From an uncultured bacterium (GTDB taxonomy: Bacteria > Patescibacteriota > Dojkabacteria > SC72): a stretch of DNA of 64,000 bases. The translations under genes and the position numbers were made by a program. The notes beneath the pieces were generated by a model. The model worked only from the letters and a program-made list of their open reading frames with translations, was not told where the DNA came from and did no database searches. Positions 8,099-30,937 of this stretch are shown one piece after another. Within the stretch, counting starts at the first letter, position 1, and each line of letters opens with the position of its first letter. The stretch covers positions 83,667 to 147,666 of the forward strand of contig CAIVJR010000005.1 in assembly GCA_903906305.1 (NCBI GenBank), written 5' to 3'.

Positions 8099-9154
8099 TT
8101 AAACTAACTCATTCCAAGATCTTTGGACTCTTTCAAGTAGTTCGATGTGGTCTAACATCAATGCGGTTCCTCTTGCTACTGCTGAAAGCGGATCATCTAC
8201 TATTTTTACTGGAAGATTTAACTCCTCTGCCCAGAATGTATCCAATCCTTTTATCAATGCTCCACCACCTGTTAAATGTAATCCTGAGGTTAACAAATCT
8301 TTTAGTAATTCTGGTGGAGTATCTTCAATTGCATCTTTAACTGCTTCGGTAATCTGATATATGGAGGTCATGATGGCTTCTCTTACCTCTACACTACTAA
8401 GCTCGACTGTCTTTGGAAGTCCCGTTAGAAGATCCCTACCCTGTACAGACATCTTAGTTTCCTTTTTTAGTGGCATTGCTGAACCTATGGCAATTTTTAC
8501 GTCTTCAGCGCTTCGCTCACCTATGAGGACATTGTATTTTTCTCTTACATAGTTAACGATATCTTGATCCATTTCATCTCCCGCAATTCTCAAGGTATTA
8601 TCTACAACAATATCTCCAAGTGAGAATACTGCAATGTCAGAAGTACCTCCTCCAACATCTACAATCATACTTCCAGAGGCATCTTCTACCGGTAACCCTG
8701 CTCCAATGGCTGCTGCCATTGATTCTTCAACTATGAATACTTCTCTCGCTCCAGCTGTTTTTACCGCATCGATAACGGCTTGTCTTTCTACTTCAGTTAC
8801 CGAAGATGGGACGCCAACGATTACTCTTGGTCTTGGAAGTTTAAATGAATTTCCAAAGTAGGAATGTGCTCGGTGTATGAAGTGATGGATCATGGCTTGG
8901 GTAGTATCAAAGTCTGAGATAACTCCATCTTTGAGTGGTCTCACTGCTGCAATGTTTGCAGGGGTTCTACCAATCATTTGTCTAGCTTCTTTACCCACAG
9001 CGAGTACTGTTTTAGTTCTTTTGTCTATTGCCACAACTGAAGGTTCGGAGACTACGATGCCGTGGTTACGCATATATACCAAGGTATTTGCAGTACCCAA
9101 GTCAATTCCCAAATCATATGTTAGTAGTTCCCAGATTGAATCAAAAATTTTCAT
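8099..9154 (-). CDS. mreB: rod shape-determining actin homolog MreB (copy 1)
   Basis: DLGIDLGTANTLVY, DVGGGTSDIAV and LTGGGALIKGLD. Carries an N-terminal amphipathic extension MKIFDSIWELL. Confidence 0.95.
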   Translation of the reverse strand: MKIFDSIWELLTYDLGIDLGTANTLVYMRNHGIVVSEPSVVAIDKRTKTVLAVGKEARQMIGRTPANIAAVRPLKDGVISDFDTTQAMIHHFIHRAHSYFGNSFKLPRPRVIVGVPSSVTEVERQAVIDAVKTAGAREVFIVEESMAAAIGAGLPVEDASGSMIVDVGGGTSDIAVFSLGDIVVDNTLRIAGDEMDQDIVNYVREKYNVLIGERSAEDVKIAIGSAMPLKKETKMSVQGRDLLTGLPKTVELSSVEVREAIMTSIYQITEAVKDAIEDTPPELLKDLLTSGLHLTGGGALIKGLDTFWAEELNLPVKIVDDPLSAVARGTALMLDHIELLERVQRSWNELV

Positions 9155-16301: not shown

Positions 16302-16323
16302 TAGATATTACATATTGTAAATG

Positions 16324-16353
16324 AAAGACCTCCGTAAGGGGGTCTTTTTGTTT
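16324..16353 (+). terminator. rho-independent terminator after rplA
   Basis: Stem AAAGACCTCC / GGGGGTCTTT with a GTAA loop, followed by a T run. Confidence 0.75.
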
Positions 16354-16360
16354 ATATATC

Positions 16361-16389
16361 TTCACAAGATGTATTCTATAGGATATAAT
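16361..16389 (+). promoter_or_regulatory. promoter of ORFan 16451
   Basis: TTCACA, 17 nt, TATAAT. The spacer ends in TTCTATAGGA (16374-16383), shared with the next cassette and the uvrA upstream region. Confidence 0.5.
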
Positions 16390-16450
16390 GTGAATGTCTT
16401 GTTGCTCTTAAGAAGTCTGAAAATCATTATAAAAAGGCGGAGAATACATC

Positions 16451-16807
16451 ATGTGTTATAAAGTAGGACAAGAATTAGTACTAAAGCTAATCGTTGCAAG
16501 AGAGTATGGCAATTGTGCACACTACACACAAGTGGGTGGACACGGTCCAGATTTTCTGGTCCTCCCAGACAAAACGATGAAAGCCTGCAATTCAGATCCC
16601 AACCTCTTTTATCATGAAAGAGAAGAATATGTTTTAATCCATGGAATTAAAATTCCGTTGGAATCGGGATTTGAAAAAGTAACTGATAACTCTCGAAAGG
16701 TTGTTTCAAAAGGTGCAAAGTTCTCTATCACCTTGATTCTTTACAAACAAACAGCCCCAGAAAAAGAATCTGCTACTTTCAGAATTAAGTCGGTTAGTCT
16801 GGCTTAA
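16451..16807 (+). CDS. hypothetical protein (ORFan inserted in the rplA-rplJ gap)
   Basis: 118-aa ORF with a GGAG about 9 nt upstream of the ATG and its own promoter. No recognisable motif. Confidence 0.5.
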   Translation: MCYKVGQELVLKLIVAREYGNCAHYTQVGGHGPDFLVLPDKTMKACNSDPNLFYHEREEYVLIHGIKIPLESGFEKVTDNSRKVVSKGAKFSITLILYKQTAPEKESATFRIKSVSLA

Positions 16808-16858
16808 CGTTACTCATTATTGAATTAGACTTTCTTAGGAACAAAATAGACAGAGGGT

Positions 16859-16934
16859 GCGCTAATAGTCGGATTACCTGAAGGTAACTCGAGAACCATT
16901 CAGGTTCACTATTATTAACAATATCTATTAGCGC
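16859..16934 (+). other. long-range inverted repeat / structured RNA element downstream of ORFan 1
   Basis: GCGCTAATAG (16859-16868) pairs with CTATTAGCGC (16925-16934). An inner stem is ACCTGAA (16876-16882) / TTCAGGT (16899-16905). An alternative partner, ACTATT at 16909-16914, exists. No U run. Confidence 0.4.
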
Positions 16935-16968
16935 GCTCTCAGCACCATCCTATTTATCACAATATATC

Positions 16969-16997
16969 TTTACAATTCCATTTCTATAGGATAGAAT
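16969..16997 (+). promoter_or_regulatory. promoter of ORFan 17066
   Basis: TTTACA, 17 nt, TAGAAT. The spacer again ends in TTCTATAGGA (16982-16991), and an ATATATCTT box precedes the -35 as in the first cassette. Confidence 0.5.
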
Positions 16998-17065
16998 ATC
17001 TAGGCAACAAGTATACCGTTGCACCTTTCAAACCAAAAGAATATCTGTAGTTAGGGAGAAACTTG

Positions 17066-17563
17066 ATGGACACAACAATTCTTGACGTTGAAAAATCCGT
17101 AGAACTAGAAACACAGCAAGAAATAGATTACTCTGGAAGTGACGGAGATCCGTTAATTCCATGGGAATGTCTATGTGAAGAACATCAAAGAAACAAAAAA
17201 TCCCACAGGTGGCACAAATCCTCCATGACCATAATCTCCGTAAGTGAGATTGATAAAAAGCATGTGAGAGTACATACTCCCAAGGGAGTATATATTTGCC
17301 GAATCACAAAATTCGACCAATATAAGGTTATAAGGGTTGTACGAACCAAAAAATCCTTTAAACCAAAAGATCCTCCCATTGAACTAGAAGATGAATTCCT
17401 CCCTGTCGTTATCGCCGAATGTGAGTTCTTGGAAGACAATTGGAAGGAGGTCCTTGCAGAGCAGAATCGGGAACAAAATCCCCAAGGAGAACAGCAAACA
17501 CTTAGAGTTATCTCTCCTGAAGCATTCAAAGCTGCAATGGACAAACGACAACCCAAAGCTTAA
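17066..17563 (+). CDS. hypothetical protein (second ORFan in the rplA-rplJ gap)
   Basis: The track ORF starts at TTG 17063. ATG 17066 is preceded by AGGGAG. Contains a Cys/His cluster WECLCEEHQRNKKSHRWH and has no recognisable family. Confidence 0.5.
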   Translation: MDTTILDVEKSVELETQQEIDYSGSDGDPLIPWECLCEEHQRNKKSHRWHKSSMTIISVSEIDKKHVRVHTPKGVYICRITKFDQYKVIRVVRTKKSFKPKDPPIELEDEFLPVVIAECEFLEDNWKEVLAEQNREQNPQGEQQTLRVISPEAFKAAMDKRQPKA

Positions 17564-17615
17564 GCCAAGGGTATTGTCTTCGTTTCGCAACCGTTATACT
17601 TGTTGAAAAAAGGAA

Positions 17616-17700
17616 GGTGGACCTAGTAATAGAATGTGATCTATAAAAGAAGCTGAGCTCTGCGCAGAGTTTCTTTTAAAAATCATTTCTTAGGTCCACC
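17616..17700 (+). other. long-range inverted repeat downstream of ORFan 2
   Basis: GGTGGACCTA (17616-17625) pairs with TAGGTCCACC (17691-17700). It encloses the palindrome CTCTGC/GCAGAG (17658-17669), followed by TTTCTTTT. Confidence 0.4.
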
Positions 17701-17716
17701 TGCACGTCCCCATCTA

Positions 17717-17745
17717 TTGACCCTACCCCATTCTACTGATATAAT
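17717..17745 (+). promoter_or_regulatory. sigma70-type promoter for rplJL
   Basis: TTGACC, 17 nt, TATAAT, 85 nt upstream of rplJ. Confidence 0.55.
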
Positions 17746-17769
17746 CCAAGCCATATATTAACCTAAGAA

Positions 17770-17793
17770 ACAAGGTATAGAATAAATCCTTGT
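17770..17793 (+). promoter_or_regulatory. hairpin in the rplJ 5' leader (possible L10-leader-type autoregulatory element)
   Basis: ACAAGG-N12-CCTTGT between the promoter and rplJ. Many bacteria carry an L10(L12)4-binding leader at this position. Confidence 0.3.
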
Positions 17794-17830
17794 GAGGTAA
17801 ATAGTGAATTCAATTAAATAAATAATAAAT

Positions 17831-18797: not shown

Positions 18798-18827
18798 TAG
18801 TTCTACAGAATTAGATCGTATGAAAAG

Positions 18828-18854
18828 GAGCCATAGCAATATGGCTCTTTTTTT
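18828..18854 (+). terminator. rho-independent terminator after rplL
   Basis: GAGCCATA-GCAA-TATGGCTC followed by T7. Confidence 0.8.
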
Positions 18855-18870
18855 ATTCATAGACTACCAA

Positions 18871-19074
18871 GGTCAGACCTAGGACAGTCCTCAATAATAT
18901 GTGATGCGCTTTTTTGTTGGATTGACGGACTTATCAGCCACTTTTTGTAGTTTGGTGCCATGCTAATTGGGCCTGTTTTTCTAATTATCTACACAGTACC
19001 CAATGTGCATTTGTCCTTACCTTCCATAGGTTTGTTGGGTTAATCGGTTGGGGAGGACTGACCTAGGTCAGTCC
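18871..19074. repeat. about 204-bp non-coding element bounded by 22-bp imperfect inverted repeats (MITE-like or structured RNA)
   Basis: Left arm GGTCAGACCTAGGACAGTCCTC (18871-18892). Right arm GAGGACTGACCTAGGTCAGTCC (19053-19074). The arms are 19/22 complementary, and 19055-19074 is itself a perfect 20-bp palindrome. The interior has no ORF and looks GC-richer than its flanks. Confidence 0.5.
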
Positions 19075-19104
19075 TTCGGGGTGTTAGATATTTATTAACT
19101 CCCA

Positions 19105-19134
19105 TCGACAAATACACCCCAAATTAAGTATAAT
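19105..19134 (+). promoter_or_regulatory. promoter of the 7TM/ATP-grasp operon
   Basis: TCGACA, 18 nt, TATAAT, 40 nt upstream of 19175. Confidence 0.45.
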
Positions 19135-19174
19135 CTAACCAGAATCTGCCTTAATTTAATACACATATATTTCA

Positions 19175-19849
19175 ATGACCTATACACCTTTTACTCAATG
19201 GATGATTACGACTGGAGTACCACAACAAGTATTGGAATTGCTACTAGCTGTAATGATTGTAGCAACAATTGTAAGCATAGCTAGATATATAATTGGATCT
19301 AAAACATATGGAATATATGCACCAATAATATTGGCAATCGCATACTCATATACAGGTTTAAGATATGGATTAGCAATAACCTTGATAGTGATTTTGACTA
19401 CCCTACTCTCATACACCATACTACGAAGAGTACGTATGCATTACATAGCTAGAATAGCAGTAAATTACTGTCTGTTAGCTATAATGTTAGTAGTCTTCTT
19501 CATAGTCATAGGACAATTTGGTTTTGGTTTAGACAATATGGCAAATATCTCTGGACTTGCAGCAATATCAATTGCAGCACTTTCAGACTTCTTCATAAAA
19601 CAATATGTAAAGAAATCATTTAAATCTTCTGTCTTGATCCTCTTTAGCACTGTTTTCATTGCCACACTCGGATGGTTTGTCATAACCCGAGATGTCATAA
19701 CAACATATTTCTTAAACAACCTTTGGATTGTTCCAATCTTAATCATATTGAATATCCTCATTGGGCAGTTTACTGGCCTTAGAATCAAAGATCTCTTTAG
19801 ATTTAAATCAGTTATTCAGAATAAGGATAAAGATAATGTTCAGAAATAG
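19175..19849 (+). CDS. 7-TM membrane protein of the type usually fused to an inactive transglutaminase (7TM_transglut-like)
   Basis: Polytopic. IGSKTYGIYAPIILAIAYSYTG resembles the family signature as I recall it. First gene of the ATP-grasp operon, the known partner context. Confidence 0.6.
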   Translation: MTYTPFTQWMITTGVPQQVLELLLAVMIVATIVSIARYIIGSKTYGIYAPIILAIAYSYTGLRYGLAITLIVILTTLLSYTILRRVRMHYIARIAVNYCLLAIMLVVFFIVIGQFGFGLDNMANISGLAAISIAALSDFFIKQYVKKSFKSSVLILFSTVFIATLGWFVITRDVITTYFLNNLWIVPILIILNILIGQFTGLRIKDLFRFKSVIQNKDKDNVQK

Positions 19850-21293
19850 GATAAAAGATGTATTAGGACTAAACAGACGTAATCAAGAATACGTTCGTCC
19901 ATACAACCACCCAAAATCTAAAGCGTTAGCAGATAATAAGATTGCTACAAAAAAGCTTCTTGCAAAGGAAGGTATCAACACATCTGAGGTATACAAACTC
20001 ATTAAAAATCGTAAACAACTAGCCTTCTTAGATTGGGAATCATTACCAAAAAGTTTTGTAATCAAACCTAATCAAGGTACTGGTGGAAATGGAATTCTAG
20101 TAATCTATGGTAGAAAGAGGGGCGAATTAGCATGGATAAGGCCAGGCGGAGAAGTATTAAGTAAAAAAGATCTCTCCTTACACATTGAGAATATCCTCGA
20201 AGGAAGATTTTCAATGGGTGAAAGAAGCGATATCGCAATAATTGAAGAAAGAGTTAGAACTGATTCATTCCTAAAACAATACTCATACAAAGGTGTACCC
20301 GATATTAGAATCATATGTTTCAATCTCGTCCCCATTATGGCAATGATGCGAATACCTACCAAACGATCCAACGGTACTGCAAATCTACATTCTGGAGCTA
20401 TATGTACCGGTATAGACATAGCAACAGGCATAACCACCTACTCTATGCATATGAATAGCAAATCATTGTTGAGCGATACATATGAGATGATAGATAATAC
20501 TCAAGATTTGAAGATTAACAAAAAGCTTTCAGGTGTTCAGATACCTGATTGGGACAAGATCTTGGATATTGCAGTAAGATGCCAAAGAGCAAGTAAGCTT
20601 GGCTATACAGGTGTCGATATAGCATTAGACGCAGACAAAGGCCCTATCGTTTTTGAATTAAATGCTAGACCTGGCCTTGGAATCCAAGTCGCAAATCAAG
20701 CGGGTTTAAGATGGAGATTAGAAAAAGTAAAAGGATTGGAAGTGAAGAGTATTAAACACGGTATAAGGGTAGCGAAGAATCTGTTTGGTGGAGAAGTAGA
20801 AGACAGTATTGAAGCTATTAGTGGAAGAAAGGTTGTTAACATCAACGAGAAAATAACCCTGTATTACAAATCATACAAAGAAGGTAGCAAAAATGAGAAT
20901 AAAGACAGAGAGATTACTACCGCATTTGTAGATACAGGAGCTATAACCTCCCGTATCTCTCGAAGCTATGTATCCAGAATGGGATATTTCGAAACCATGA
21001 GACAGTTTGACTATCTAAAATGCCCTAAGAACTTCCTCGCTTTTAAGGATGCACAAGAATACATAGACGAATATAGTAAAAACATGACAGAGGATGCATA
21101 CATCATACGTTTAGCTAAAATCTTTGAGGATGGGCAAATAGTTGTCCGACCTGTTATCATTGTTAAAGTAAGAATATCAGGCGAAATACGTGATCTTGAA
21201 ATGATCGTAACTGAAGATAGTACACACTCTGTCACATTAGGAAGAAACGACCTCAGAGACTATTTAATTGATACAAGTAAAACATTTAAATAA
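19836..21293 (+). CDS. alpha-L-glutamate-ligase-related ATP-grasp enzyme fused to a C-terminal retropepsin-like aspartic protease
   Basis: ATG 19836 (MFRNRIKDVLGLNRRNQEYVRPYNHP...) overlaps the upstream gene by 14 nt. ATP-grasp core (VIKPNQGTGGNGI, GYTGVDIALD, FELNARPG). C-terminal FVDTGAITS, VVRPVIIV and VTLGRNDLRDYLID form a DTGA protease module. Confidence 0.7.
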   Translation: MFRNRIKDVLGLNRRNQEYVRPYNHPKSKALADNKIATKKLLAKEGINTSEVYKLIKNRKQLAFLDWESLPKSFVIKPNQGTGGNGILVIYGRKRGELAWIRPGGEVLSKKDLSLHIENILEGRFSMGERSDIAIIEERVRTDSFLKQYSYKGVPDIRIICFNLVPIMAMMRIPTKRSNGTANLHSGAICTGIDIATGITTYSMHMNSKSLLSDTYEMIDNTQDLKINKKLSGVQIPDWDKILDIAVRCQRASKLGYTGVDIALDADKGPIVFELNARPGLGIQVANQAGLRWRLEKVKGLEVKSIKHGIRVAKNLFGGEVEDSIEAISGRKVVNINEKITLYYKSYKEGSKNENKDREITTAFVDTGAITSRISRSYVSRMGYFETMRQFDYLKCPKNFLAFKDAQEYIDEYSKNMTEDAYIIRLAKIFEDGQIVVRPVIIVKVRISGEIRDLEMIVTEDSTHSVTLGRNDLRDYLIDTSKTFK

Positions 21294-22282
21294 TGAAAAC
21301 ATACGAAGAATATCTAAAAGAAGCAGGAAATGTCCATTTAGCATACTATGTCGAAGCTGCTGACATCTTAGGAATCAAATATTCCATCGTTGTTAGAAGC
21401 CTAATTGCAAAGTTCGAAGTTGAAGACAAGCATTGGTTCATTATAAATACTGTTACACCCCTAACCTCCTCCCCAAGTGCTACCATTTCAAAACGAAAGA
21501 ACCTTACCAATATGGTATTAAGCTCATATGGTGTAGATGTCCCAAAGCAAGAGGGATTAACAAGCCCCATTGATGCTATAAAATTCTTTAATAAGTATAA
21601 AAACATAGTCATAAAGCCTGCTCAACAGCTTGGTGGAAAAGGTATTACCCTACTTCCAGAGACAGAAGACCAGGTTATATCTGCTTTCAACGAAGCATTC
21701 GAGAAAGATAGATCAAAAGGAGAAATTAAGGTATTGGGAGAAGAATTCATCAAAGGAGAAAACTATCGATTCTTAGTAGTTGGCGAAAACGTTGTTGGAA
21801 TAGTATGGAGAAAGGCCCCAATAGTTATCGGCAATAGCAAAAATACTATAAGAGAACTAATTGATACATCAAACAAAGAGCGTAGCCTCCTCGTTCTCAA
21901 ATCTATTCCCATAGATTCAGAAGTACAAACTAGATTAAAAAATGCTGACCTCACATTAGATTCAATTCCAGACGAAGGCCAAGTTATAACCCTTAGATAC
22001 AATTGTAATCTGACTACTGGTGGTACTACAGAAGAGTGTGCTTCCATTGTAGATCCATACTACAAGGAGCTCGCTGTAAAGGCCGTTAAGGCTCTTGATT
22101 TAGAATTCGGGGGTGTAGATATCATTGCAGAGGATATAACTAAACCAGGGAAGTGTGGAATTAATGAAATCAACTACAATCCTGGATTAAGATTACATTA
22201 CAAAGCTGACAAGGGTGAGAAGGTTAAGGTCGCTGTCCCTATTATGGAATATATTAGAGATAAGTATACAAATAAATTATAA
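21293..22282 (+). CDS. ATP-grasp ligase, cyanophycin-synthetase G-domain-like
   Basis: IKPAQQLGGKGIT, GENYRFLVVGENVVG, RYNCNLTTGGTTEEC, GGVDIIAEDITKP and EINYNPGL. Start shares 1 nt with the upstream stop (TAATG). Confidence 0.65.
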   Translation: MKTYEEYLKEAGNVHLAYYVEAADILGIKYSIVVRSLIAKFEVEDKHWFIINTVTPLTSSPSATISKRKNLTNMVLSSYGVDVPKQEGLTSPIDAIKFFNKYKNIVIKPAQQLGGKGITLLPETEDQVISAFNEAFEKDRSKGEIKVLGEEFIKGENYRFLVVGENVVGIVWRKAPIVIGNSKNTIRELIDTSNKERSLLVLKSIPIDSEVQTRLKNADLTLDSIPDEGQVITLRYNCNLTTGGTTEECASIVDPYYKELAVKAVKALDLEFGGVDIIAEDITKPGKCGINEINYNPGLRLHYKADKGEKVKVAVPIMEYIRDKYTNKL

Positions 22283-22292
22283 GATAAACATT

Positions 22293-23984
22293 ATGAGTAA
22301 CGTGCAAGTATTACAAGGCCTAAATCTAGATTCAGAGATATCTGTCATAAAAATTAATGTACATAAGACCGATACTATCGTTAGATATCTTGAACTTCTT
22401 AAAAATTTTCACCCAATATTCATGCGTGAATACAAATTTGAAAATGACATCTTAAGCATTCACACAATGATAACCTCGTTGTGGAGAGAACTTGGAGAAA
22501 TAATAATCAAACTTTCAGAAGGAAAGATCGATTACGAAGAAGCAAGAAAACACACTCTTGAAGAAGTCCTTAAACAACGAGTAGCCTCTATGTCTACTAT
22601 TCCTCTAATCTTTTTTGCAAACAAAATGAAATATGAGGTAACACCAACGCTATTAGAAGACGAAAGGATAAAATACAATACAGGGCCCAATAGAATATAT
22701 ACTTTAGGCGTAGGTCGTAATTCCCAAATTATATATTCTATATCCTCTAGTAAAGATTCTAAAGAAGCAAAAGAAATTCAAAGAGATAAATATCTTACAA
22801 ACCTTATGATTCAGCGATTAGGTCTCCCTATTCCAAAATGGCAAGTCCTAGACAATATATCACAGATTGAAGAAGTCTGGAGTAGCTATGAAAAACCTGT
22901 CGTCATAAAACCAACAGGTCTTACAGGTGGGCATGGTGTTGTAGTTGGTATAGAAACGCTAGAGAAAGCAAAGGAGGCATTTAAATTTGCAAAAGAAGCA
23001 ACTCAGGATAGAATCAGAGAAGAATGGCAGCAAAAGATCATGATACAAGAACAAATCTCAGGTGAAGATTACAGGCTTCTCGTTATAAATGGCCATCTAG
23101 AAATCGCAACCAAGCGTATTCCAGCCTTCATCATAGGAGATGGCAAGCATACAATTGAAGAATTGATCGATATAACCAATACAGATCCTCGAAGAGATGT
23201 TACTAACCCTACTCATACATTAAAACCTATTAAGATTGATGATCCTCTAAAGTCATATATCAAAGATCAGAAATTAACCCTTACCTCTATTCCTAAGAAA
23301 GAGCAGAAAGTTAATGTGAGAAAGGTTGCAAGCATGAGCCAAGGCGGCATAACCGAAGATTTTACGGATAAGGTAAGCCCAGAAATTAAAGCAATTGTAG
23401 AGAGCATCGCATCATCGATTCATGCATTTACTCTAGGGGTCGATGTCATGTGTAAAGATCTTTCCAAACCATTAACAAAAGACAACGGTGCAATACTAGA
23501 AGTGAACACAATGCCTGAAGCATATCTTAATACCTATCCTGTCATTGGTGAATCCCGAGAATACGTATTCGACAAATATATAAAAGCTCTTTTAGAAGGC
23601 AATAACACAAAGCAGATAGTAATTGTAGGTAATAGCACAGAAGATGTACCTACTCTACTAAGAAAGAAATCGATCTTTGGATCATACCTCAAACAAGATG
23701 CCGTTATCGGAGAATACAAAGATGGAGAGATTAGAATTAATGGGTTGGATATAAATAAGGGCCTAGAGAAATGGAAAGCAATAGAAGGCCTTAAAGTAAA
23801 TGCATCTTTAGATGCAATGATCATACATCATAGAAATGTAGAAGAGGTTAGAGAAACAGGCTTAGGATTTAATAAAATTGACCTTTTAATGGTAGAATCT
23901 AAATATTTTGAAGATAGAGAATTTAAAAAAGCTATCCGAAGATACCAAATGAAAGGATTAATATCTAAAATAAAGAAATTCTAA
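22293..23984 (+). CDS. cyanophycin-synthetase-like protein (N + ATP-grasp domains; M domain reduced to a degenerate stub)
   Basis: ATG 22293 (MSNVQVLQGLNLDS...). CphA-like order: N-domain, then STIPLIFFANKM...LGVGRNSQIIYSISSSKDSKEAKEIQRDKYLTNLMIQRLGLPIPK, then VIKPTGLTGGHGV, GEDYRLLVINGHL, RKVASMSQGGITEDFTD and LEVNTMPE. The C-terminal ~130 aa begin QIVIVGNSTEDVPT where a Mur-ligase P-loop would sit. Confidence 0.65.
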   Translation: MSNVQVLQGLNLDSEISVIKINVHKTDTIVRYLELLKNFHPIFMREYKFENDILSIHTMITSLWRELGEIIIKLSEGKIDYEEARKHTLEEVLKQRVASMSTIPLIFFANKMKYEVTPTLLEDERIKYNTGPNRIYTLGVGRNSQIIYSISSSKDSKEAKEIQRDKYLTNLMIQRLGLPIPKWQVLDNISQIEEVWSSYEKPVVIKPTGLTGGHGVVVGIETLEKAKEAFKFAKEATQDRIREEWQQKIMIQEQISGEDYRLLVINGHLEIATKRIPAFIIGDGKHTIEELIDITNTDPRRDVTNPTHTLKPIKIDDPLKSYIKDQKLTLTSIPKKEQKVNVRKVASMSQGGITEDFTDKVSPEIKAIVESIASSIHAFTLGVDVMCKDLSKPLTKDNGAILEVNTMPEAYLNTYPVIGESREYVFDKYIKALLEGNNTKQIVIVGNSTEDVPTLLRKKSIFGSYLKQDAVIGEYKDGEIRINGLDINKGLEKWKAIEGLKVNASLDAMIIHHRNVEEVRETGLGFNKIDLLMVESKYFEDREFKKAIRRYQMKGLISKIKKF

Positions 23985-23985
23985 T

Positions 23986-24933
23986 ATGAAATACCTCATC
24001 ATAGACAAAAGACAGCGTGTAGAAGTAGCTACAATGGGTGAAATACCTACAGGATCAGCAAGATTAGTAGAAGAATTAGATAAAAAAAATATTCCTCATG
24101 ATTTTGCATATAACGATGAAATAGAGTTCTTGTTTCATAATGGTTCCACGGTTATAAAAGTGGCAGGACATGACGTAACAGAGTACAGCAACATCATTCT
24201 TAGAGGTCATTCCTTAGGTGACGAACGTGAGTATCAATACAAGAGATTCATCATAGACTACGTTGATCAATATAATAGAGACAACCCAGAAAAAAAAGTG
24301 ATCATTCAGAATTCTAAGGCAATCAAGAATCTTCCATATTACAATAAGATAGCCTTTGCAATGCTATGTTCAAAAAATAACCTCCCCTACTTTAATACAT
24401 ATTTCCATACCAATGGGGAATATTTAAAAGATAGAGATATGTTAAAGGAATATCCATTGATTATCAAAGAATACTCGGGAATGAATAGAACTGAAATGAT
24501 TGAGGGTAAAGAGAAGATCAAGAAGAATGTGTTTAAATTAGAGAAAGATGAGGATTACAAGCAAGAAAATCTTGATGGACAAGATCTTTCCCATTTCTTC
24601 ATACAGGAATTTTCTGATGCTGGTGAAGATTACAGAATATTTGTTAAGTTAGGGAAAGTAATAGCCGGATGGAAAAGAAAGGCTGTTAATGGCTTTATGA
24701 CTGTAAGCAAGGGTGAGTACGAGATGTACAATACTCCTAACGAGGAGATAACTGAGATTGCTGAGAAGATGGCATCCGTATTAGAAGCTGACTTTATGGC
24801 CGTAGACTTTATGTATATGAATGGGAAGGCATGTATACAAGAGATAAGCTTCCATCCTGGATATAAGGCATATGAGACTAAGATTGAGGGAGAGCCAGTG
24901 AATATAGCTGAAGCTATAGTTACTGCTTTTTAA
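23986..24933 (+). CDS. RimK-like ATP-grasp ligase
   Basis: LIIKEYSGMNR, GEDYRIFVKLGKVIAGWKRKA, ADFMAVDFMYMNGKACIQEISFHPG. Starts 1 nt after the upstream stop. Confidence 0.6.
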   Translation: MKYLIIDKRQRVEVATMGEIPTGSARLVEELDKKNIPHDFAYNDEIEFLFHNGSTVIKVAGHDVTEYSNIILRGHSLGDEREYQYKRFIIDYVDQYNRDNPEKKVIIQNSKAIKNLPYYNKIAFAMLCSKNNLPYFNTYFHTNGEYLKDRDMLKEYPLIIKEYSGMNRTEMIEGKEKIKKNVFKLEKDEDYKQENLDGQDLSHFFIQEFSDAGEDYRIFVKLGKVIAGWKRKAVNGFMTVSKGEYEMYNTPNEEITEIAEKMASVLEADFMAVDFMYMNGKACIQEISFHPGYKAYETKIEGEPVNIAEAIVTAF

Positions 24934-27211
24934 GTCCTAGCTTCTCAAACATATTATTACTATCACCATTGTGATCATGTATTGCTTGGGCTTTGTATCT
25001 AGGTAGGACGAATATAAACTTACTTCCCTTACCTATTTCACTCTCTACTCGAATATCACCACCCATCTTACGTATAAGGTTGAAGGTTACGAATAATCCC
25101 AAACCAGTACCACCAGGTCTTACAATCTCTAGCTTCTCACCAACCTCTATGCTGGAGTTAATGTGATTCCCTGCCCTAAAGAATTTCTGTCCCAACTTAG
25201 GTAGCTCCTCTGCACTAATACCATAACCAGTATCAATAATGGATACTTCTACCCAGTTATCATCAAATCTATTCTCTATGGTCACACTACCTCTCTCTGT
25301 ATACTTAACAGCATTACTTATTAGGTTGTTCAATATCTCTACCACTCTAGCCCTATCTGCATATACATGAGGAGTATCTAATTGCATATTATTAATAATT
25401 GGAAGATCTTTTTCCATAGCATCTCTCTCATTCCCATGTATAGCCATATCTACCTCATTCTTAATATCTACCTCTTCAGGATCTATGACTATCTTATCCC
25501 CCTCTAATTTAGCACTACTCAGTAATGTATTAATTAGTTTTATTTCATTCTCTACAGCCATCTTAATCCTATCTACATACCTCTTGTATGCTTCAGGATC
25601 ACTCTGTATATCCCCTGTGAACTTCTCTAAGAGCTGTGCATTGAGTTTAACTATGGTAGCAGGTGTTCTTAACTCATGTCCCATTATATCAATCATATCG
25701 TTCTCTTTCTTACGAGCTTCCTGTAGTTCTTGAATCTTAACCTGAAGTTCTGCCGTCTGCGCATCAACCTTATATTGAAGGGTCTGATTGAAGGATTGAA
25801 GCTGCTTGTAAAGAAGGGCCTTATTAACAGAAATATGGAACTGGCTATATATACGATCCCAAAGATCTAATTCATCAATCTTGTACATCTGATTATTAGG
25901 TAGGTCTTGTATGAAAAGAACCCCTATTAGCTCACTCCCAGATACAATTGGATAGACTATTTGAATTTTAGATAACTCTAACAGATACAACAAATTAGAA
26001 TACTCTCGATATTCTAATGCATCTTTGTTACTCAAATACTCTAGCTCAGATCTGGAAAGAGATTTTAATCTTCCTACTGTAGTCGTTTCTTTATTCCAAT
26101 ACACTGGAATCTCTACAAAAATTTTATTAAGGTTTTCTATCTTCCAATCTCCATGAGTAAAACGATATGATTTTGTATTAACAGAGTCGTAAAGATATAT
26201 TTGAGCTTTGTTTGCAGAAGTATTTTGGCATATATAGCTCAAAGTCTTGTTACATATATCAGAAAGTTCTTGCTCAAAGTTAAGAAGTTTAATAAAGCCT
26301 TCACCCTTGTTTCTAAGGATCTGTTTTTCTGACAGGAAAATGTTGGCAACAGCATCTATAACTATTTTAAAAATAAGTGCTAACAAAAACGCAATTATGT
26401 AAAACAATATTTTAGGAATTTCCAACTGCTCAATTAGTGGGAAAACAACTACCAAAGAAACTACAAATACGATAGATGGAATAATGTAGAGAGATAAACT
26501 TCGCAAAATACCCCGTATCACAATCCCAAATCGTTGGAACCGTGTCTGTGTTAGACCATACGAAATAATAAGGTTTGCGATTGAGAATACCACAGGCCCA
26601 AACCAAATATATTCATAAACACCAAAGTATGGAGCTATGATATTAGCAGGGAAAGAACCCACTACTGTTAAAACATTTCCTATAATTAGATATTTTTGCT
26701 GTTCTTTCTCTATAAATGATAATGCTTTATACCCTCTTAAAGTTTTGTAAACATTAACTGCAAATACGATTGTTAACCATGCCATCCAGACCAGATATGC
26801 TTTACCAACTATTATATAGTTATTCCCTTCTAAGACAATTCTTTCTATAAAATTGTTTGTAAAGAATATTTCGTAAAGGAGAAAAAGAAATCCCCCTACT
26901 ACAAACAGAGCAAATAATAAATTGATCTTCTTTCTACGAAGATAATACGTAGAGAAAATATAATGGAACAGACCAATTGATATTGATGATAAATAGATAA
27001 TATCCGCCCAAAGTTTAGCGGTACTTAATGTATCTGTTAATAGAAAAGATACTGTTGAGAAAGCCCAAACCGGTCCAGCTATTATTCCCAAAATTCCTAA
27101 GAAAAAATATGCCTTGTTCTTTGGTTCTTTGAGAAAGGTAACTAAAGGCCCTATTAAGGAGGTAAACCCTAGTATTACAACAAACATATATAAAGTGTTA
27201 TCCCATATCAT
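24920..27211 (-). CDS. sensor histidine kinase with N-terminal multi-TM sensor and GAF-like domain (orphan)
   Basis: About 8 N-terminal TM helices, a coiled coil, H-box MGHELRTPAT, N-box LNNLISNAVKYT, G1 DTGYGI and G2 GGTGLGL. No response regulator in the window. Confidence 0.9.
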   Translation of the reverse strand: MIWDNTLYMFVVILGFTSLIGPLVTFLKEPKNKAYFFLGILGIIAGPVWAFSTVSFLLTDTLSTAKLWADIIYLSSISIGLFHYIFSTYYLRRKKINLLFALFVVGGFLFLLYEIFFTNNFIERIVLEGNNYIIVGKAYLVWMAWLTIVFAVNVYKTLRGYKALSFIEKEQQKYLIIGNVLTVVGSFPANIIAPYFGVYEYIWFGPVVFSIANLIISYGLTQTRFQRFGIVIRGILRSLSLYIIPSIVFVVSLVVVFPLIEQLEIPKILFYIIAFLLALIFKIVIDAVANIFLSEKQILRNKGEGFIKLLNFEQELSDICNKTLSYICQNTSANKAQIYLYDSVNTKSYRFTHGDWKIENLNKIFVEIPVYWNKETTTVGRLKSLSRSELEYLSNKDALEYREYSNLLYLLELSKIQIVYPIVSGSELIGVLFIQDLPNNQMYKIDELDLWDRIYSQFHISVNKALLYKQLQSFNQTLQYKVDAQTAELQVKIQELQEARKKENDMIDIMGHELRTPATIVKLNAQLLEKFTGDIQSDPEAYKRYVDRIKMAVENEIKLINTLLSSAKLEGDKIVIDPEEVDIKNEVDMAIHGNERDAMEKDLPIINNMQLDTPHVYADRARVVEILNNLISNAVKYTERGSVTIENRFDDNWVEVSIIDTGYGISAEELPKLGQKFFRAGNHINSSIEVGEKLEIVRPGGTGLGLFVTFNLIRKMGGDIRVESEIGKGSKFIFVLPRYKAQAIHDHNGDSNNMFEKLGLKKQ

Positions 27212-28700
27212 TGTTCTTTGGCAGTTTTAATTCAAAAAATCTTGTTAAACTCATTTTCCTCTCTTCGTATGGTGGGTAATAAGAGCCTTCAATTCCTGTT
27301 AGCTCCAAGGTTTTCATTCCTGTCTTCCTTAGATCTTGAGCGATCTTTGGTGCTAGCTTCTTAGTTATTGCCCCAGCCTTCTTTGCCCCCATTAGATATC
27401 CCCAGAAACTGTTAAAACCTAATTTTTTTCTAACTTCAGCTAGAAGTTCATACTGCATAGTCGAAGATGGCGAAAAGAGTTGATTGATAAACGAAATCCC
27501 ATTTTTTTCTTTAATACTATATTCTGTATCTCCCAACTTAACATTTTTCTCAAAATTTTCTTTCTTTGTGAAGAAAATTGTCTTCAACATGCTCCCTGTA
27601 GAAAGATCAACTTGCATTCCAGGATCCAATGTACAATCTTGAAAAAGTCCTCCTGGTTTAACTCTTTTAACCATCTCGTCTACGACCTCAAAGTGAGTCT
27701 TCTCATCAAAATAGTTTATCCCGTTATCCGAAAATACAAAATGGTATGTATCATCACCCTTCTGCATAGATTCCAGAGCTGTTTCAAAATATATCGTTAC
27801 CCCCTCAAAATTCTTTTCTTTTTGCCCACTATCCAAAACAATTCGTGTAGGGATACCTCGCAAGGTTAACAACGTAGCTGCACAAATAACAGATTGAAGA
27901 GAGTTATCGGCAGAATGAAACTCAATTTTCTTTCCAGTCTCTTTAAGAGCCTCGTACATTAATGCTGTTGTGATGCCCGCACCGGTACATAATTCCTTAA
28001 CTTTGATTACTTCTTCTCCAGGAAAAGCCTCTTTCATATGATCTCTTGCCTTGGGAGCCATAATCCTTTCTAAACGATATGATTCATAGGCCAAAAGTTT
28101 GTTTAATATCCCTTCAATATTTGATTCCTCCCAATGCATAGATCTTTCCGTACTTTCATCTACGCCATTAGAAAAAAGTTTAGTTGTTTCTTTAAGTAAT
28201 TTTGGTATTAATTGATTAGACATTATTCGAATAGTTGCAGGAGCAAAAACAAATGGATTTTTTGGGTTCATGTATTCCCATTCAGCATAATTGGCATACT
28301 TTTTATGCACATCCATAAAAACAGGGACAAACTCATTTTGAGCATCTCGGACTTCAGCACTTATCTCTGTTGGAATCTTAATATACAAACCGTATTCGTC
28401 TGATCCTAACATCTTTAAATCAAGATCTTTTGGATCCTGAAGGTTAGAAATTTGGGCGTTTTCTTCATTTGTAGCTATTTGTGTCAAATAATTTGTTAAT
28501 GAAGGTAATTGCGAGATATTCTCTTCTGACTGTATTGGCTCATCTGCTGGGACTACAACTTCAGTAGTTACTGGAACGTTTGAAATTTCTTCCTGGGGTG
28601 GTTGCAAAGGAGAATTGGTTTCAACTTGCAAAGACATACCTTCACTCTCTAGTGGTGGTTTGTTATCCATTCTTATTTGGGCAATATTATGTATATACAT
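27198..28700 (-). CDS. hypothetical protein with class I SAM-methyltransferase-like core and a P/Q/E-rich N-terminal region
   Basis: ELCTGAGITTALMYEAL (motif I-like), IEFHSADNS, and VKRVKPGGLFQD (post-III/IV-like). The N-terminal ~110 aa are low complexity. An alternative start is ATG 28670. Confidence 0.5.
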   Translation of the reverse strand: MYIHNIAQIRMDNKPPLESEGMSLQVETNSPLQPPQEEISNVPVTTEVVVPADEPIQSEENISQLPSLTNYLTQIATNEENAQISNLQDPKDLDLKMLGSDEYGLYIKIPTEISAEVRDAQNEFVPVFMDVHKKYANYAEWEYMNPKNPFVFAPATIRIMSNQLIPKLLKETTKLFSNGVDESTERSMHWEESNIEGILNKLLAYESYRLERIMAPKARDHMKEAFPGEEVIKVKELCTGAGITTALMYEALKETGKKIEFHSADNSLQSVICAATLLTLRGIPTRIVLDSGQKEKNFEGVTIYFETALESMQKGDDTYHFVFSDNGINYFDEKTHFEVVDEMVKRVKPGGLFQDCTLDPGMQVDLSTGSMLKTIFFTKKENFEKNVKLGDTEYSIKEKNGISFINQLFSPSSTMQYELLAEVRKKLGFNSFWGYLMGAKKAGAITKKLAPKIAQDLRKTGMKTLELTGIEGSYYPPYEERKMSLTRFFELKLPKNNDMG

Positions 28701-28723: not shown

Positions 28724-29893
28724 CTATATCCCCGCCTTCTCAAATATTTCTAACCATTTATCTTTGTTTGGTACGTTATTTGGCATAGGTAATAACCCAT
28801 CCTCTACCCATTCACACTGTTTAAATGTAATCTTTCCCGCATACAATTGGTTATACAATCTAGGATTCTCTTCCAATTTCTTCTTAACTTTTCTAAATCC
28901 TCTAAAATATGCAATATCTTTACAATATATTCCTCGATCATGTGTATCCCCCAATCCTCTTTTAACACTATATGTAACATCAAATGCAGAATACTTAGGT
29001 AAAACAGCCAAAAGAACATTGTAAAGCTCTCTAAAGGAAAGATCTTCACCTAGATATACAGCCCATGTTAATGCTGCTTTGTTCTTCAACCATTTCTCTG
29101 TAAGAAGACCCATATTACTCTCATTCCATGTAGCCAAACCCTCCTCAACATCCAAATATTCAGGAAGATTAGCATTACTCAAAGCATTGAACCCACATTT
29201 CATACCATTTTCCGCTCTTAAAGCATGGGTCCCAACCTCGTGTACTAAAGTTTTTCGTAATTTGAAATTACTTCTTTCAATATTGGAATCCACCAAAATC
29301 TCTTTTCGTTTAATACCAAGCTTAATTCCATTTTTTGAAATATTTGCAGATTCATTTACAGTCCAACCATCTAACCCTAGCTCTCTGAAAGTAATGTCAA
29401 ATACTTTTTCAATATCATCATGATACAAAATCTTCCTCCTATTTATATCATCCTCCTTTACCACGTTGTAGTTATCTAACTTTCCTCTCAGTACCCTAGC
29501 CGCATTCCTAAATAGCTTGTCACTAGGTTTACCATACCTATGTACAGAAATATCAGTAACCTCTTCGTTATTACCAACCGCATACATAAGGTCGCTGGCT
29601 TCCTTTTTTGAATCAATTAACTGAAGGTAGAAATCAGAAATGCGAGGATCCACATCAACAATCTCTTTAACATTAGAAAGTTTCTTCAATATCTCTTTGT
29701 TATTATTCTTTACAATCCTGTATTCAAATACCGGATTGTATATCTCGCTATTAAAGAATTTCTTCTTCTCTGCTTCTAAGTTTGTAGGTGTAAATACTAA
29801 TGCAGTCGGTATCCTCAAATCACCAAGTAGCTTAGTAACTTCATCAAGCCTTAATGTCTTCTTTTTTCTAGCAAATATTTCCATGGGATACAT
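28724..29893 (-). CDS. DUF1704 / MATCAP-family zinc carboxypeptidase-like protein
   Basis: HEVGTH (HExxH) followed by YLDVEEGLATWNE (the family QEGLA motif) and KRGLGDTHDRGIYCKDIAYFRG. Confidence 0.65.
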   Translation of the reverse strand: MYPMEIFARKKKTLRLDEVTKLLGDLRIPTALVFTPTNLEAEKKKFFNSEIYNPVFEYRIVKNNNKEILKKLSNVKEIVDVDPRISDFYLQLIDSKKEASDLMYAVGNNEEVTDISVHRYGKPSDKLFRNAARVLRGKLDNYNVVKEDDINRRKILYHDDIEKVFDITFRELGLDGWTVNESANISKNGIKLGIKRKEILVDSNIERSNFKLRKTLVHEVGTHALRAENGMKCGFNALSNANLPEYLDVEEGLATWNESNMGLLTEKWLKNKAALTWAVYLGEDLSFRELYNVLLAVLPKYSAFDVTYSVKRGLGDTHDRGIYCKDIAYFRGFRKVKKKLEENPRLYNQLYAGKITFKQCEWVEDGLLPMPNNVPNKDKWLEIFEKAGI

Positions 29894-29917: not shown

Positions 29918-30937
29918 CTATCTCCTAAAATCTCTGTTAAATGAGAACTTCCTTGAGCCCTCTTCTATGAGGTCTAAAGCAATACCAGTACCTTTTACTA
30001 CACAAAAAAGAGGATCATCTGCGACATGAGCAGGCACACCTGTAGCACGAGAGAAAAGTTTGTCTAAATTTCTTAGCAAGGATGTACCACCACTCATGAC
30101 CATACCACGATCCATAATGTCAGCAGATAGCTCTGGAGGAGTCTTTTCTAATACTGCTTGTATACTCTTAATTATACTCCTCAATGGCCACTCTACAGCT
30201 TTAGCAATATCATTGGAATTAACAATTACTGATTTAGGCATACCAGCTCCAACATCTCTTCCCCTTACTTCCATCTCCCTTGGATCTTTTACCTCTAATG
30301 CACTCCCTATCTTTATCTTTATCTTCTCAGCTGTCTGTTCACCAATTAAAAGGCCTTTCTTTTTACGCATGTATGAGATTATGGCCTCATTAATAGCGTC
30401 ACCTGCTACTCTTAGAGATTCATATTCTACTACTCCGTCAAGGGATATAACCGCGACTTCGGTGGTACCACCACCCATATTTATAATCATATTTCCAGAT
30501 GATGTATTTATTGGCATCTCCGCACCCAATGCAGCTAACAGAGGTTCTGGGAGTAATGTAACATTCCTTGCACCAACCGCATTTGCAGCTTTAAGTACAG
30601 CTCTTTCTTCTACAGAAGTAATACCTGCAGGTACACTAATTACAACATCAGGTTTGAAAAATCTTCCTTTTCCCAATGCTTTGTCAAAGAAGTATCTAAG
30701 TAAAGCTTCAGTTACTCGAGAATCAGCTATGACACCATTACGAAGAGGTCTTTTGGCAACGATATTATCTGGAGTCTTACCAATCATTTCTTTAGCTTCC
30801 ATACCTACAGCTATGACAGTGAAGTTGTTTACATCTATGGCCACAACGGTAGGTTCAGTTAAGACAATCCCTTCCCCTTGGACAAATACAACTGAGTTAG
30901 CTGTTCCTAGGTCTATACCTAATTTCTTTACAAACAT
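29918..30937 (-). CDS. MreB-like actin homolog (copy 2, paralog)
   Basis: LGIDLGTANSVVF, NMGGGTTEVAV and MSGGTSLLRNLD. Shorter N-terminus than copy 1. Confidence 0.9.
   Translation of the reverse strand: MFVKKLGIDLGTANSVVFVQGEGIVLTEPTVVAIDVNNFTVIAVGMEAKEMIGKTPDNIVAKRPLRNGVIADSRVTEALLRYFFDKALGKGRFFKPDVVISVPAGITSVEERAVLKAANAVGARNVTLLPEPLLAALGAEMPINTSSGNMIINMGGGTTEVAVISLDGVVEYESLRVAGDAINEAIISYMRKKKGLLIGEQTAEKIKIKIGSALEVKDPREMEVRGRDVGAGMPKSVIVNSNDIAKAVEWPLRSIIKSIQAVLEKTPPELSADIMDRGMVMSGGTSLLRNLDKLFSRATGVPAHVADDPLFCVVKGTGIALDLIEEGSRKFSFNRDFRR

Follow-up and report, generated by a model that had tools for sequence, protein, structure and literature searches.

A conserved Dojkabacterial gene cluster of ATP-grasp ligases, a fused retropepsin, and a MATCAP-type carboxypeptidase as a candidate relative of RloABC and RimK-RimB

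Why would a bacterium with a very small genome line up four ATP-grasp ligase genes behind the gene of a single membrane protein and fuse a protease to one of the ligases? The question is raised by a locus in a 64,000-nucleotide (nt) stretch of DNA from an uncultured member of the Dojkabacteria (assembly GCA_903906305.1, contig CAIVJR010000005.1, positions 83,667 to 147,666); this whole stretch is called the window here, and coordinates refer to it unless another locus is named. Five genes, g1 to g5, form the cluster, and we find that a zinc carboxypeptidase gene of the MATCAP type, convergent to g5, belongs with them. We regard g1-g5 and the MATCAP gene as one conserved module and as an enlarged, cytoplasm-facing relative of two known systems, RimK-RimB and RloABC. 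The argument begins with the following features (lengths in amino acids [aa]).

19105-19134, + strand: promoter-like site TCGACA-N18-TATAAT, 41 nt 5' of the g1 start codon
19175-19849, + strand: g1, polytopic membrane protein, 224 aa
19836-21293, + strand: g2, ATP-grasp ligase fused to a retropepsin-like domain, 485 aa; overlaps g1 by 14 nt
21293-22282, + strand: g3, ATP-grasp ligase, 329 aa; its ATG takes its A from the TAA of g2 (1 base)
22293-23984, + strand: g4, CphA2-like ATP-grasp protein, 563 aa; 10-nt gap after g3
23986-24933, + strand: g5, RimK-like ATP-grasp protein, 315 aa; 1-nt gap after g4
28724-29893, - strand: MATCAP/QEGLA-type zinc carboxypeptidase, 389 aa (PF08014, 1.4e-26; TIGR02421, 9e-33)

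Conservation of the cluster and its carboxypeptidase partner

All five open reading frames (ORFs) were verified on the + strand, where they span 19175-24933; the junctions were read directly, and every overlap and gap of the tight same-strand coupling described in an initial annotation of this DNA was reproduced. The start of g2 is ATG 19836, in agreement with all orthologues; a mechanical ORF list begins the gene earlier, at a TTG. The upstream gene rplL ends in a terminator hairpin (18828-18847), G+C content is ~36% throughout, and there is no foreign-DNA signature.

The orthologues of g2, 65 to 97% identical and all ~485 aa long, come from Candidatus Dojkabacteria (WS6, Patescibacteria). 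On long contigs, rplJ-rplL is followed by genes for the seven-transmembrane (7TM) protein, the fusion protein, and proteins of 328, 563 to 569, and 317 aa, and then by convergent MATCAP and MreB genes. In a tblastn synteny analysis, the order rplL > g1-g5 < MATCAP < MreB2 (MreB2 being an MreB paralogue) was found in 21 of 21 GTDB Dojkabacteria species loci and again in 15 of 15 Dojkabacteria-type metagenomic loci with enough flank, with protein identities across the Dojkabacteria synteny loci of 48 to 88%. The co-location that the initial annotation had suggested surveying in related genomes is therefore seen, in the same order, in every Dojkabacteria locus with enough flank, and the g1-g5 block is conserved far beyond chance. 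When the window proteins are compared with those of the genome-collection loci, identities are 51 to 68% for g1, 59 to 69% for g2, 51 to 67% for g3, 48 to 61% for g4, 58 to 73% for g5, 58 to 68% for MATCAP, and 70 to 86% for ribosomal protein L7/L12. The cluster is thus about as conserved as housekeeping genes, and conservation at this level in very small genomes suggests that it is probably important to the biology of its host.

The MATCAP gene, overlooked in the initial annotation, is the sixth conserved partner of g1-g5. Its product matches PF08014 with 93.8 bits (cutoff, 27) and TIGR02421 with 114 bits, under the cutoff of 338. The motifs HEVGTH (aa 218-223) and EEGLA (aa 250-254) are invariant in 16 orthologues; HExxxH and EEG are the catalytic motifs of TMCP1/MATCAP, an enzyme with deglutamylating activity as well (PMC10499314). 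Wherever a Dojkabacteria locus has enough flank, the MATCAP gene is oriented convergently to g5, mostly adjacent to it or slightly overlapping; in a few loci, one small gene or a few hundred bases part the two.

The initial annotation had also placed a promoter in front of g1. TCGACA-N18-TATAAT proved to be the top-scoring promoter-like site of the region (11 of 12). Promoter-like sites as such are not above chance in number (22 found versus 24.5 expected), and the site is credited because it is conserved across loci, not because of the site count: TCGACA...(G)TATAAT recurs at the corresponding position in 9 of 15 orthologous loci, where the proteins are only 50 to 70% identical. On this sequence evidence, the recurrence is a phylogenetic footprint.

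Two features of the leader region were observed in addition. The spacer between rplL and g1 (18798-19174) measures 377 nt here, versus ~120 to 150 nt in most orthologous loci, and contains two near-palindromic, inverted 23-mers, aggtcagacctaggacagtcctc (18870-18892) and gaggactgacctaggtcagtcct (19055-19077), complementary at 20 of 23 positions; it may hold a small inserted element. A repeat scan of the spacer, which missed the inverted 23-mers, and a search for known RNA families returned nothing at threshold. Closer to g1, a leader motif, AATCTGCC (19144-19151 in the window), recurs 25 to 45 nt 5' of the g1 start codon in several species; it is shared by the orthologous loci L001, L008, L011, L023, and L024, with the variant AATCTGCTC in L003 and L020. 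It matches no Rfam family and may be a regulatory or transcription-start element.

Domain anatomy of the encoded proteins

Two of the five proteins are composed of several domains, which were delimited as follows.

19848-20744, + strand: g2 ATP-grasp domain, RloC/TIGR02291-like (Pfam ATPgrasp_ST)
20829-21275, + strand: g2 retropepsin-like domain, divergent PF05618 (RimB/RloA type), ~aa 330-485
22293-22697, + strand: g4 N domain, ~aa 1-135
22698-23582, + strand: g4 G domain, ~aa 136-430
23583-23981, + strand: g4 truncated M-domain stub, aa 431-563
23625-23654, + strand: degenerate P-loop of g4, VGNSTEDVPT, aa 445-454

The polytopic g1 protein (~7 transmembrane segments) belongs to the 7TM_transglut/RloB family (PF14402; E value, 1.8e-16; 60.8 bits). 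It aligns only to positions 311-507 of the 508-position RloB model (36 bits; cutoff, 900); because only the C-terminal 7-TM part of the model is covered, the transglutaminase domain is absent. In g2, the N-terminal domain is an ATP-grasp ligase (PF14397; E value, 1.5e-64; 218 bits; cutoff, 31) that is TIGR02291-like (E value, 2.1e-86), in which K77, D261, E274, and N276 (the Lys, Asp, and E-x-N positions) are invariant in 40 sequences. An AlphaFold2 (AF2) model (predicted local distance difference test [pLDDT] score, 87) matches RimK/ArgX in Foldseek at a root mean square deviation of ~4 Å and also the RimK-RpsF complex; against the RimK family model TIGR00768, g2 reaches 48.3 bits (cutoff, 143.4).

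Assignment of the g2 C-terminal domain required more distant comparisons. A direct Pfam scan gave only sub-threshold aspartic-protease matches (PF05618; E value, 0.043), and phmmer with the whole protein found no aspartic-protease match in the PDB. A profile of the domain placed the RloA structures 9G59 and 9G58 at the top of the PDB matches (E values, 0.013 and 0.022), followed by 2PMA and DDI1, and retrieved 88 relatives from 1.84 billion representative proteins. Fifty-five of these relatives were selected and scanned against Pfam; 44 are PF05618 proteins (best E value, 3.7e-55), and 20 are fused to ATPgrasp_ST. By this transitive profile search, the g2 C terminus is proven to be a fused domain of the PF05618 type, a predicted retropepsin. 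Its DTG motif lies at aa 366-368 (nt 20931-20939): D366 and T367 are invariant in 22 Dojkabacteria orthologues, D366, T367, and G368 are each at least 90% conserved after distant fusions are added, and D[TS]G is present in 66 of 67 distant fusions. In the AF2 model, the domain is mostly beta (pLDDT, 81 to 93), with two helices inserted; whole-chain Foldseek was dominated by the ATP-grasp domain and returned ATP-grasp structures only. The g2 N terminus, MFRNRIKDVLGLNRRNQ, is not a signal peptide, and since the protease is fused to the ligase, the retropepsin should be cytoplasmic. The initial annotation's reading of g1 as a small 7TM_transglut-type protein without transglutaminase and of g2 as a TIGR02291-like ligase with a fused retropepsin is therefore borne out.

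The same is true of the CphA-like cores that it had recognized in g3 and g4. g3 is a stand-alone ATP-grasp ligase of the clade formed by the G domain of cyanophycin synthetase (CphA), the C-terminal ligase of GshAB, and Ngg; it matches CphA models at 4e-60 (positions 167-471 of 871), GshAB at 3e-49, and Ngg at 2e-39 and shares 32% identity with the G domain of CphA1 and likewise with that of g4. Its Lys, Asp, and E-x-N motifs are conserved (IKP...GVDII...EIN), and the large-loop motif of the G domain, S/T-x-G-G-x-T, is common to g3 and g4.

The closest relatives of g4 are CphA proteins (CphA models, 4e-73, with 247 bits versus the CphA cutoff of 877; CphA1 and CphA2 in the PDB, 2.6e-41 and 8e-40), followed by GshAB (7e-46) and Ngg (7e-32). 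The catalytic ATP-grasp residues K206, D384, E403, and N405 are present and conserved. In hhalign comparisons with a CphA set (probability, 100), g4 35-536 is collinear with CphA 78-563, the CphA P-loop GTNGKTT pairs with GNSTEDVPT, and g4 stops ~110 aa into the M domain. The best Foldseek match of the AF2 model (pLDDT, 78; N domain and C-terminal stub, >85) is the CphA2 structure 7ta5 (E value, 4.9e-32; 593 columns; 563 versus 585 residues), with further matches to 8fxi and 8fxh, at an identity to CphA2 of just 20 to 21%. StCphA2 contacts its substrates through T163, D212, and R308; local g4-CphA2 alignments begin past CphA2 D212. As modeled, g4 shares with cyanophycin synthetase 2 the layout of an N domain, a G domain, and a truncated, inactive M domain, which in CphA2 occupy residues 1-158, 159-486, and 487-636 (PMC10273328). 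The initial annotation had already described such an N domain and an M stub of ~130 aa that reads VGNSTEDVPT at the P-loop position, and both hold. The primer-generating site Cx19HxxEH occurs in the N domain of 83% of CphA1 enzymes (PMC9262961); no HxxEH was found in the first 170 residues of 36 of 36 g4 family members, and as a control, the motif was present in 2 of 3 bona fide CphA1 sequences.

Public assemblies already include a protein that matches g4 at 100% identity. Public sources call g4 orthologues (P0220, P0248, P0209, and others) "cyanophycin synthetase" or "D-alanine-D-alanine ligase-like ATP-grasp enzyme"; judged by the dead M domain and a score far under the CphA cutoff, neither name is supported.

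The last gene, g5, encodes a divergent RimK-family ATP-grasp protein, as first proposed: PF08443 matches above its cutoff (6.4e-8), TIGR00768 below it (1.5e-12; 47.5 bits versus 143.4), and the protein aligns with RimK (7qyr).

Distant relatives, fusions, and neighboring genes

More distant fusion proteins came from the domain search, and their loci, too, open with a transglutaminase-less 7TM gene. A metagenome scan contributed ~65 distant loci, in which the g2 counterpart is 36 to 48% identical; we infer the Patescibacterial origin of these contigs from gene order and small operons. Counts were taken from an unbiased clustering of neighbors in 67 loci. In 62 of the 67, the gene immediately upstream of the fusion gene encodes the 7TM protein, and among the 47 loci with at least 2.5 kb downstream of the fusion gene, 37 (79%) carry 1 to 4 more ATP-grasp genes directly 3' of it on the same strand. 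These ligases include the following types.

41 distant loci: RimK-like ligase, ~303 aa
21 distant loci: CphA-G-like ligase, ~320 aa
8 distant loci: 502-aa ATP-grasp protein

With 37 of 47 loci so equipped, extra ligases are the rule in this family, and the expansion that the initial annotation considered unusual is in fact common. The lineage-specific parts are only the CphA2-like g4 and the separate MATCAP gene: outside Dojkabacteria, a single sister lineage (L030, L052) was seen to carry an N-G-M' g4 and a free-standing MATCAP gene, and because the GTDB scan for g4 relatives used two peptide patterns only, absence of such relatives beyond Dojkabacteria is not proven.

Fusions link the same activities in single chains. 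Protein P0179 (916 aa; locus L035, 731-3481) combines ATP-grasp, retropepsin, and MATCAP, and P0150 (688 aa; locus L036, 1159-3225) combines ATP-grasp, retropepsin, and a YdjC-like deacetylase; both are encoded directly after a 7TM_transglut gene, and P0150 is followed by genes for a CphA-G-like and a RimK-like ligase. A 52-aa ORF in L036 was considered as a carrier or precursor peptide and rejected: it resembles the N terminus of the next, g3-like gene, which is probably split.

In the window, three genes near the cluster share the strand of MATCAP.

24920-27211, - strand: sensor histidine kinase (7TM N-terminal region, HisKA, HATPase)
27198-28700, - strand: 500-aa protein of no family (weak methyltransferase match)
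29918-30937, - strand: MreB paralogue MreB2, directly upstream of MATCAP

MreB2 is found beside MATCAP in every Dojkabacteria locus with flank, at 72 to 88% identity, and has a conserved basic C-terminal tail, FSFN(R/K)(D/E)FRR (here FSFNRDFRR); its membership in the system is uncertain. The window holds two MreB paralogues, 43 to 46% identical, the other of which (8099-9154, - strand) adjoins MreC. The histidine kinase and 500-aa protein genes, which share a 14-nt overlap, run in the same direction as MATCAP and MreB2. Because they stand between g5 and MATCAP in this genome only, neither was accepted into the system; near the kinase gene, no response regulator was seen.

Elsewhere in the window, the ~1.5-kb rplA-rplJ interval (16302-17830) contains two ORFs of 118 and 166 aa. 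Orthologous loci differ in their small ORFs at this position (75 to 101 aa in L001 and L003), which marks a variable insert in a conserved ribosomal cluster. Two giant ORFs on the - strand, 48164-56038 (2,624 aa) and 57138-63890 (2,250 aa), lie in a stretch where the G+C content is raised, to 0.42 to 0.43 in places, versus ~0.36 elsewhere.

Proposed function and relation to known systems

ATP-grasp ligases convert a carboxylate into an activated acyl-phosphate, which they then join to an amine. RimK in this way adds alpha-linked Glu to a protein C terminus, giving poly-alpha-Glu tails, and the G domain of CphA lengthens its polymer at the C-terminal carboxylate. The reading that we tentatively favor, and to which we give a little under an even chance, is that membrane-docked ligases build an amino-acid chain, probably acidic, whose length is limited by an endopeptidase and a carboxypeptidase. 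The 7-TM protein g1 would anchor the machinery at the membrane and may also present an acceptor or export the product. The RloC-like ATP-grasp domain of g2 and the other ligases would each use ATP to turn a carboxylate into an acyl-phosphate and add an amino acid, and jointly they would make an oligomeric or polymeric chain, most likely Glu/Asp-rich, on the C-terminal carboxylate of an acceptor that may be a free peptide, a protein tail, or an envelope precursor. g4, which like CphA2 couples an N domain of the CphA type to an inactive M stub, is the candidate repetitive polymerase; g3 and g5 would add or prepare other units, g5 perhaps in a regulatory role. The fused retropepsin, an aspartic endopeptidase expected to act as a dimer, would cleave the chain internally, the MATCAP-like zinc carboxypeptidase would shorten it from the C terminus, and together the two would restrict its length or recycle it.

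Each of these activities has a precedent. In CphA2, the G domain alone is catalytic and polymerizes repeatedly (PMC10273328); RimB and RloA cleave stretches of 8 or more Glu residues (PMC12239564); and MATCAP/TMCP enzymes take off C-terminal residues, Glu included (PMC10499314). Without RloA, toxicity sets in unless RloB or RloC is lost as well (PMC12239564), which implies that the ligase and the membrane protein make something that the protease must process. The initial annotation had likewise proposed stepwise assembly and trimming of an amino-acid polymer or protein tail. The anatomy behind that proposal stood, and assembly and trimming is still the best reading, now stronger because of the conserved MATCAP gene, the ATP-grasp/retropepsin/MATCAP triple fusion, and the extra ligases of the relatives. 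Domain identities, catalytic motifs, gene order, and fusions are shown by the sequences; as to product, acceptor, and the role of the 7-TM protein, the functional claim is a hypothesis.

Several points weigh against it. Neither a product nor an acceptor was found. An acidic C-terminal tail was sought in the neighbors MreB2 and L7/L12, and none was found; both were dropped as acceptors, the MreB2 tail being basic and L7/L12 ending in VEL-Q/A/E/K. The acidic specificity of the g2 retropepsin is suggested by family precedent and by conserved Arg residues, including that of the RPV motif, and the ligases could equally act on a nonpeptide carboxylate. The RloA residues in contact with substrate are K46, R114, and R137. 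To our knowledge, the reaction that RloC itself catalyzes has not been demonstrated, and g2 scores slightly under the TIGR02291 cutoff (289.8 versus 314.2 bits). The catalytic residues of ATP-grasp enzymes are in place in g2, g3, and g4. In g5, the metal site reads E-I-S for E-x-N (Ser in 19 of 20 orthologues, Gly in one) and the Gly-rich loop is missing, from which g5 may be inactive, weakly active, or regulatory; the RimK-like gene of distant locus L036 keeps a canonical E-V-N. Because g5 deviates at a metal-binding residue, the four active ligases assumed initially are not established, even though its RimK likeness is.

A bolder extension is that Patescibacteria make a new nonribosomal heteropolymer or peptide tail with up to four or five cooperating ATP-grasp ligases at a 7-TM protein, remodeled dynamically by an endo- and an exopeptidase, as a bacterial counterpart of the tubulin tail code of ligases and carboxypeptidases and possibly acting on the MreB2/PBP1A machinery, with g4 polymerizing something other than cyanophycin. 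We hold this to be an unlikely prospect.

Among the alternatives, the one that survives best concerns the envelope: the ligases would extend a membrane-bound precursor (a peptidoglycan stem or cross-bridge or a carboxylated glycopolymer) presented by the 7-TM protein and trimmed by the peptidases, and the system would tune wall structure and cell shape. MreB2 lies directly beside MATCAP in all Dojkabacteria loci, one ligase-retropepsin relative is fused to a YdjC sugar deacetylase, and P. aeruginosa rlo mutants have cell-shape, beta-lactam, and hypo-osmotic defects (PMC12239564). Moreover, in 23 distant loci (including L055, L056, L061, L063, L065, L077-L079, L088, and L094-L097), a class A penicillin-binding protein (PBP; transglycosylase plus transpeptidase) is encoded 3' of the ligases on the same strand, and the fusion proteins of these loci are 39 to 100% identical (median, 58%). 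This adjacency could reflect a cell-wall link or inherited gene order in one or two lineages, as most of the 23 loci share YebC-RuvC upstream. The cluster is also without a Mur- or Fem-type gene or a lipid-carrier enzyme, and the g4 N domain suggests a polymer rather than a short bridge. We consider this alternative unlikely on balance.

Quite unlikely, in our estimate, is a small soluble peptide, a di- to pentapeptide that the ligases would make in sequence and the 7-TM protein would export as an osmolyte or thiol-like compound (compare glutathione and N-acetylglutaminylglutamine amide). The clade of g3 and g4 does include the GshAB C-terminal ligase and Ngg, and the Rlo system is tied to osmotic stress, but two peptidases whose precedents act on polymers or protein tails are then hard to account for, g4 has kept the N domain of CphA and, overall, the layout of CphA2, and family scans found no GNAT, amidotransferase, or gamma-glutamyl-cysteine ligase partner in the cluster.

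Ribosomal tailing, in which the ligases would extend the C terminus of S6 or of the neighbor L7/L12 and the retropepsin would act as RimB does, has gene position in its favor, since the cluster directly follows rplJ-rplL in Dojkabacteria and lies beside L10 and L7/L12 genes in about a dozen distant loci; the cytoplasmic ligase-retropepsin fusion also parallels the RimK-RimB complex, and the RimK and RimK-RpsF structures are among the Foldseek matches of g2. Yet the most constant partner is a membrane protein (62 of 67 loci), L7/L12 has no conserved acidic tail, g2 is of the RloC rather than the RimK type (TIGR00768, 48 bits versus 143), and CphA-like ligases have no precedent on ribosomal proteins, all of which makes this reading very unlikely.

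Ordinary cyanophycin metabolism, with g4 as CphA1 or CphA2 and nitrogen stored as poly(Asp-Arg), is most improbable: although CphA1 and CphA2 are the best sequence and fold matches of g4 and some sources call its orthologues "cyanophycin synthetase," the score of 247 bits against 877, the identity of 20 to 21% to CphA2, the absence of Cx19HxxEH from 36 of 36 family members, the Rlo-type partner genes, and the lack of any cyanophycinase seen in or near the cluster speak against it, and a 133-aa M stub without the P-loop Lys/Thr makes Arg attachment impossible, which excludes the CphA1 form.

Our preferred reading, assembly and trimming of an amino-acid chain, bears on a question of product that is still standing for Rlo/TIGR02291 systems, whose effects in Pseudomonas extend to antibiotic tolerance, biofilm formation, and cell shape. 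In Patescibacteria, that puzzle takes a richer and more constrained form: the ligase and protease are fused, MATCAP is linked by gene order and by fusion, and up to four extra ligases, one of them polymerase-like in layout, are co-transcribed. These features narrow the chemistry down to the building and trimming of an amino-acid chain, and the genes make a compact set for heterologous reconstitution. The cluster also supplies a bacterial functional context for the MATCAP family and places a CphA2-like enzyme outside cyanophycin metabolism, and public records that name its genes cyanophycin synthetase or D-Ala-D-Ala ligase should not be relied on. A literature search, with a 2009 comparative-genomics paper outside its reach, yielded no description of a Patescibacterial multi-ligase version, of a MATCAP linkage, or of the CphA2-like gene in this setting, and nothing relevant on MATCAP with bacterial ATP-grasp proteins, on DUF1704, or on cyanophycin in Dojkabacteria or Patescibacteria.

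Compared with known systems, the cluster shares parts with several. g3 and g4 share their ATP-grasp clade with the C-terminal ligase of GshAB and with Ngg, which extend the alpha-carboxylate of an amino acid or peptide, but g3 and g4 score far below the family cutoffs and a gamma-glutamyl-cysteine ligase or GNAT domain is lacking. With CphA1, g4 is collinear over N, G, and the first part of M (hhalign probability, 100), whereas its M domain is cut to 133 aa, the P-loop is destroyed, Cx19HxxEH is absent, and the score is 247 bits versus 877. CphA2 (7TA5, 8FXH, 8FXI) is closer, with the same N-G-truncated inactive M layout, similar domain sizes, and the top whole-length structural match; the differences are an identity of 20 to 21%, a noncyanobacterial host, an Rlo-type operon, and no CphA1 or cyanophycinase seen. 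The tubulin TTL/TTLL and MATCAP/TMCP enzymes likewise pair an ATP-grasp amino-acid ligase with an HExxxH/EEG zinc carboxypeptidase, some of the ligase relatives match the TTL Pfam model, and a cytoskeletal gene (MreB) adjoins; in contrast, the present system is bacterial, includes a membrane partner and a retropepsin, and has a neighboring MreB2 with a basic tail.

RimK-RimB resembles the cluster in the physical coupling of a cytoplasmic ATP-grasp ligase to an aspartic protease of the PF05618 family that trims what the ligase has made, and g2 and g5 have RimK-like folds and motifs. Unlike the cluster, RimK-RimB has no membrane partner, and g2 and g5 score far under the RimK cutoff. The closest parallel in composition is rloABC of P. 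aeruginosa, the subject of a genetic and structural study in which the product is still undefined (Lormand et al., mBio 2025; PMC12239564); the triad of 7TM protein, ligase, and retropepsin, known to the initial annotation as a comparative-genomics prediction only, has thus been characterized genetically. Both have a 7TM_transglut protein, an ATPgrasp_ST ligase (TIGR02291 or TIGR02291-like), and a PF05618 retropepsin, and the profile of the g2 C-terminal domain finds its best PDB matches in the RloA structures 9G58 and 9G59. RloB, however, has a periplasmic inactive transglutaminase domain that g1 lacks; RloA is a separate, secreted protein with a signal peptide, whereas the protease here is ligase fused and predicted to be cytoplasmic; three more ATP-grasp ligases and a MATCAP-type carboxypeptidase are present here; and the present host belongs to the Patescibacteria, in contrast to the 96% of RloB matches reported from Proteobacteria (PMC12239564). 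Two of the three defining features of rloABC, the transglutaminase domain and the separate secreted protease, are therefore absent, and we conclude that the Dojkabacterial cluster is a relative of rloABC rather than a member of it.

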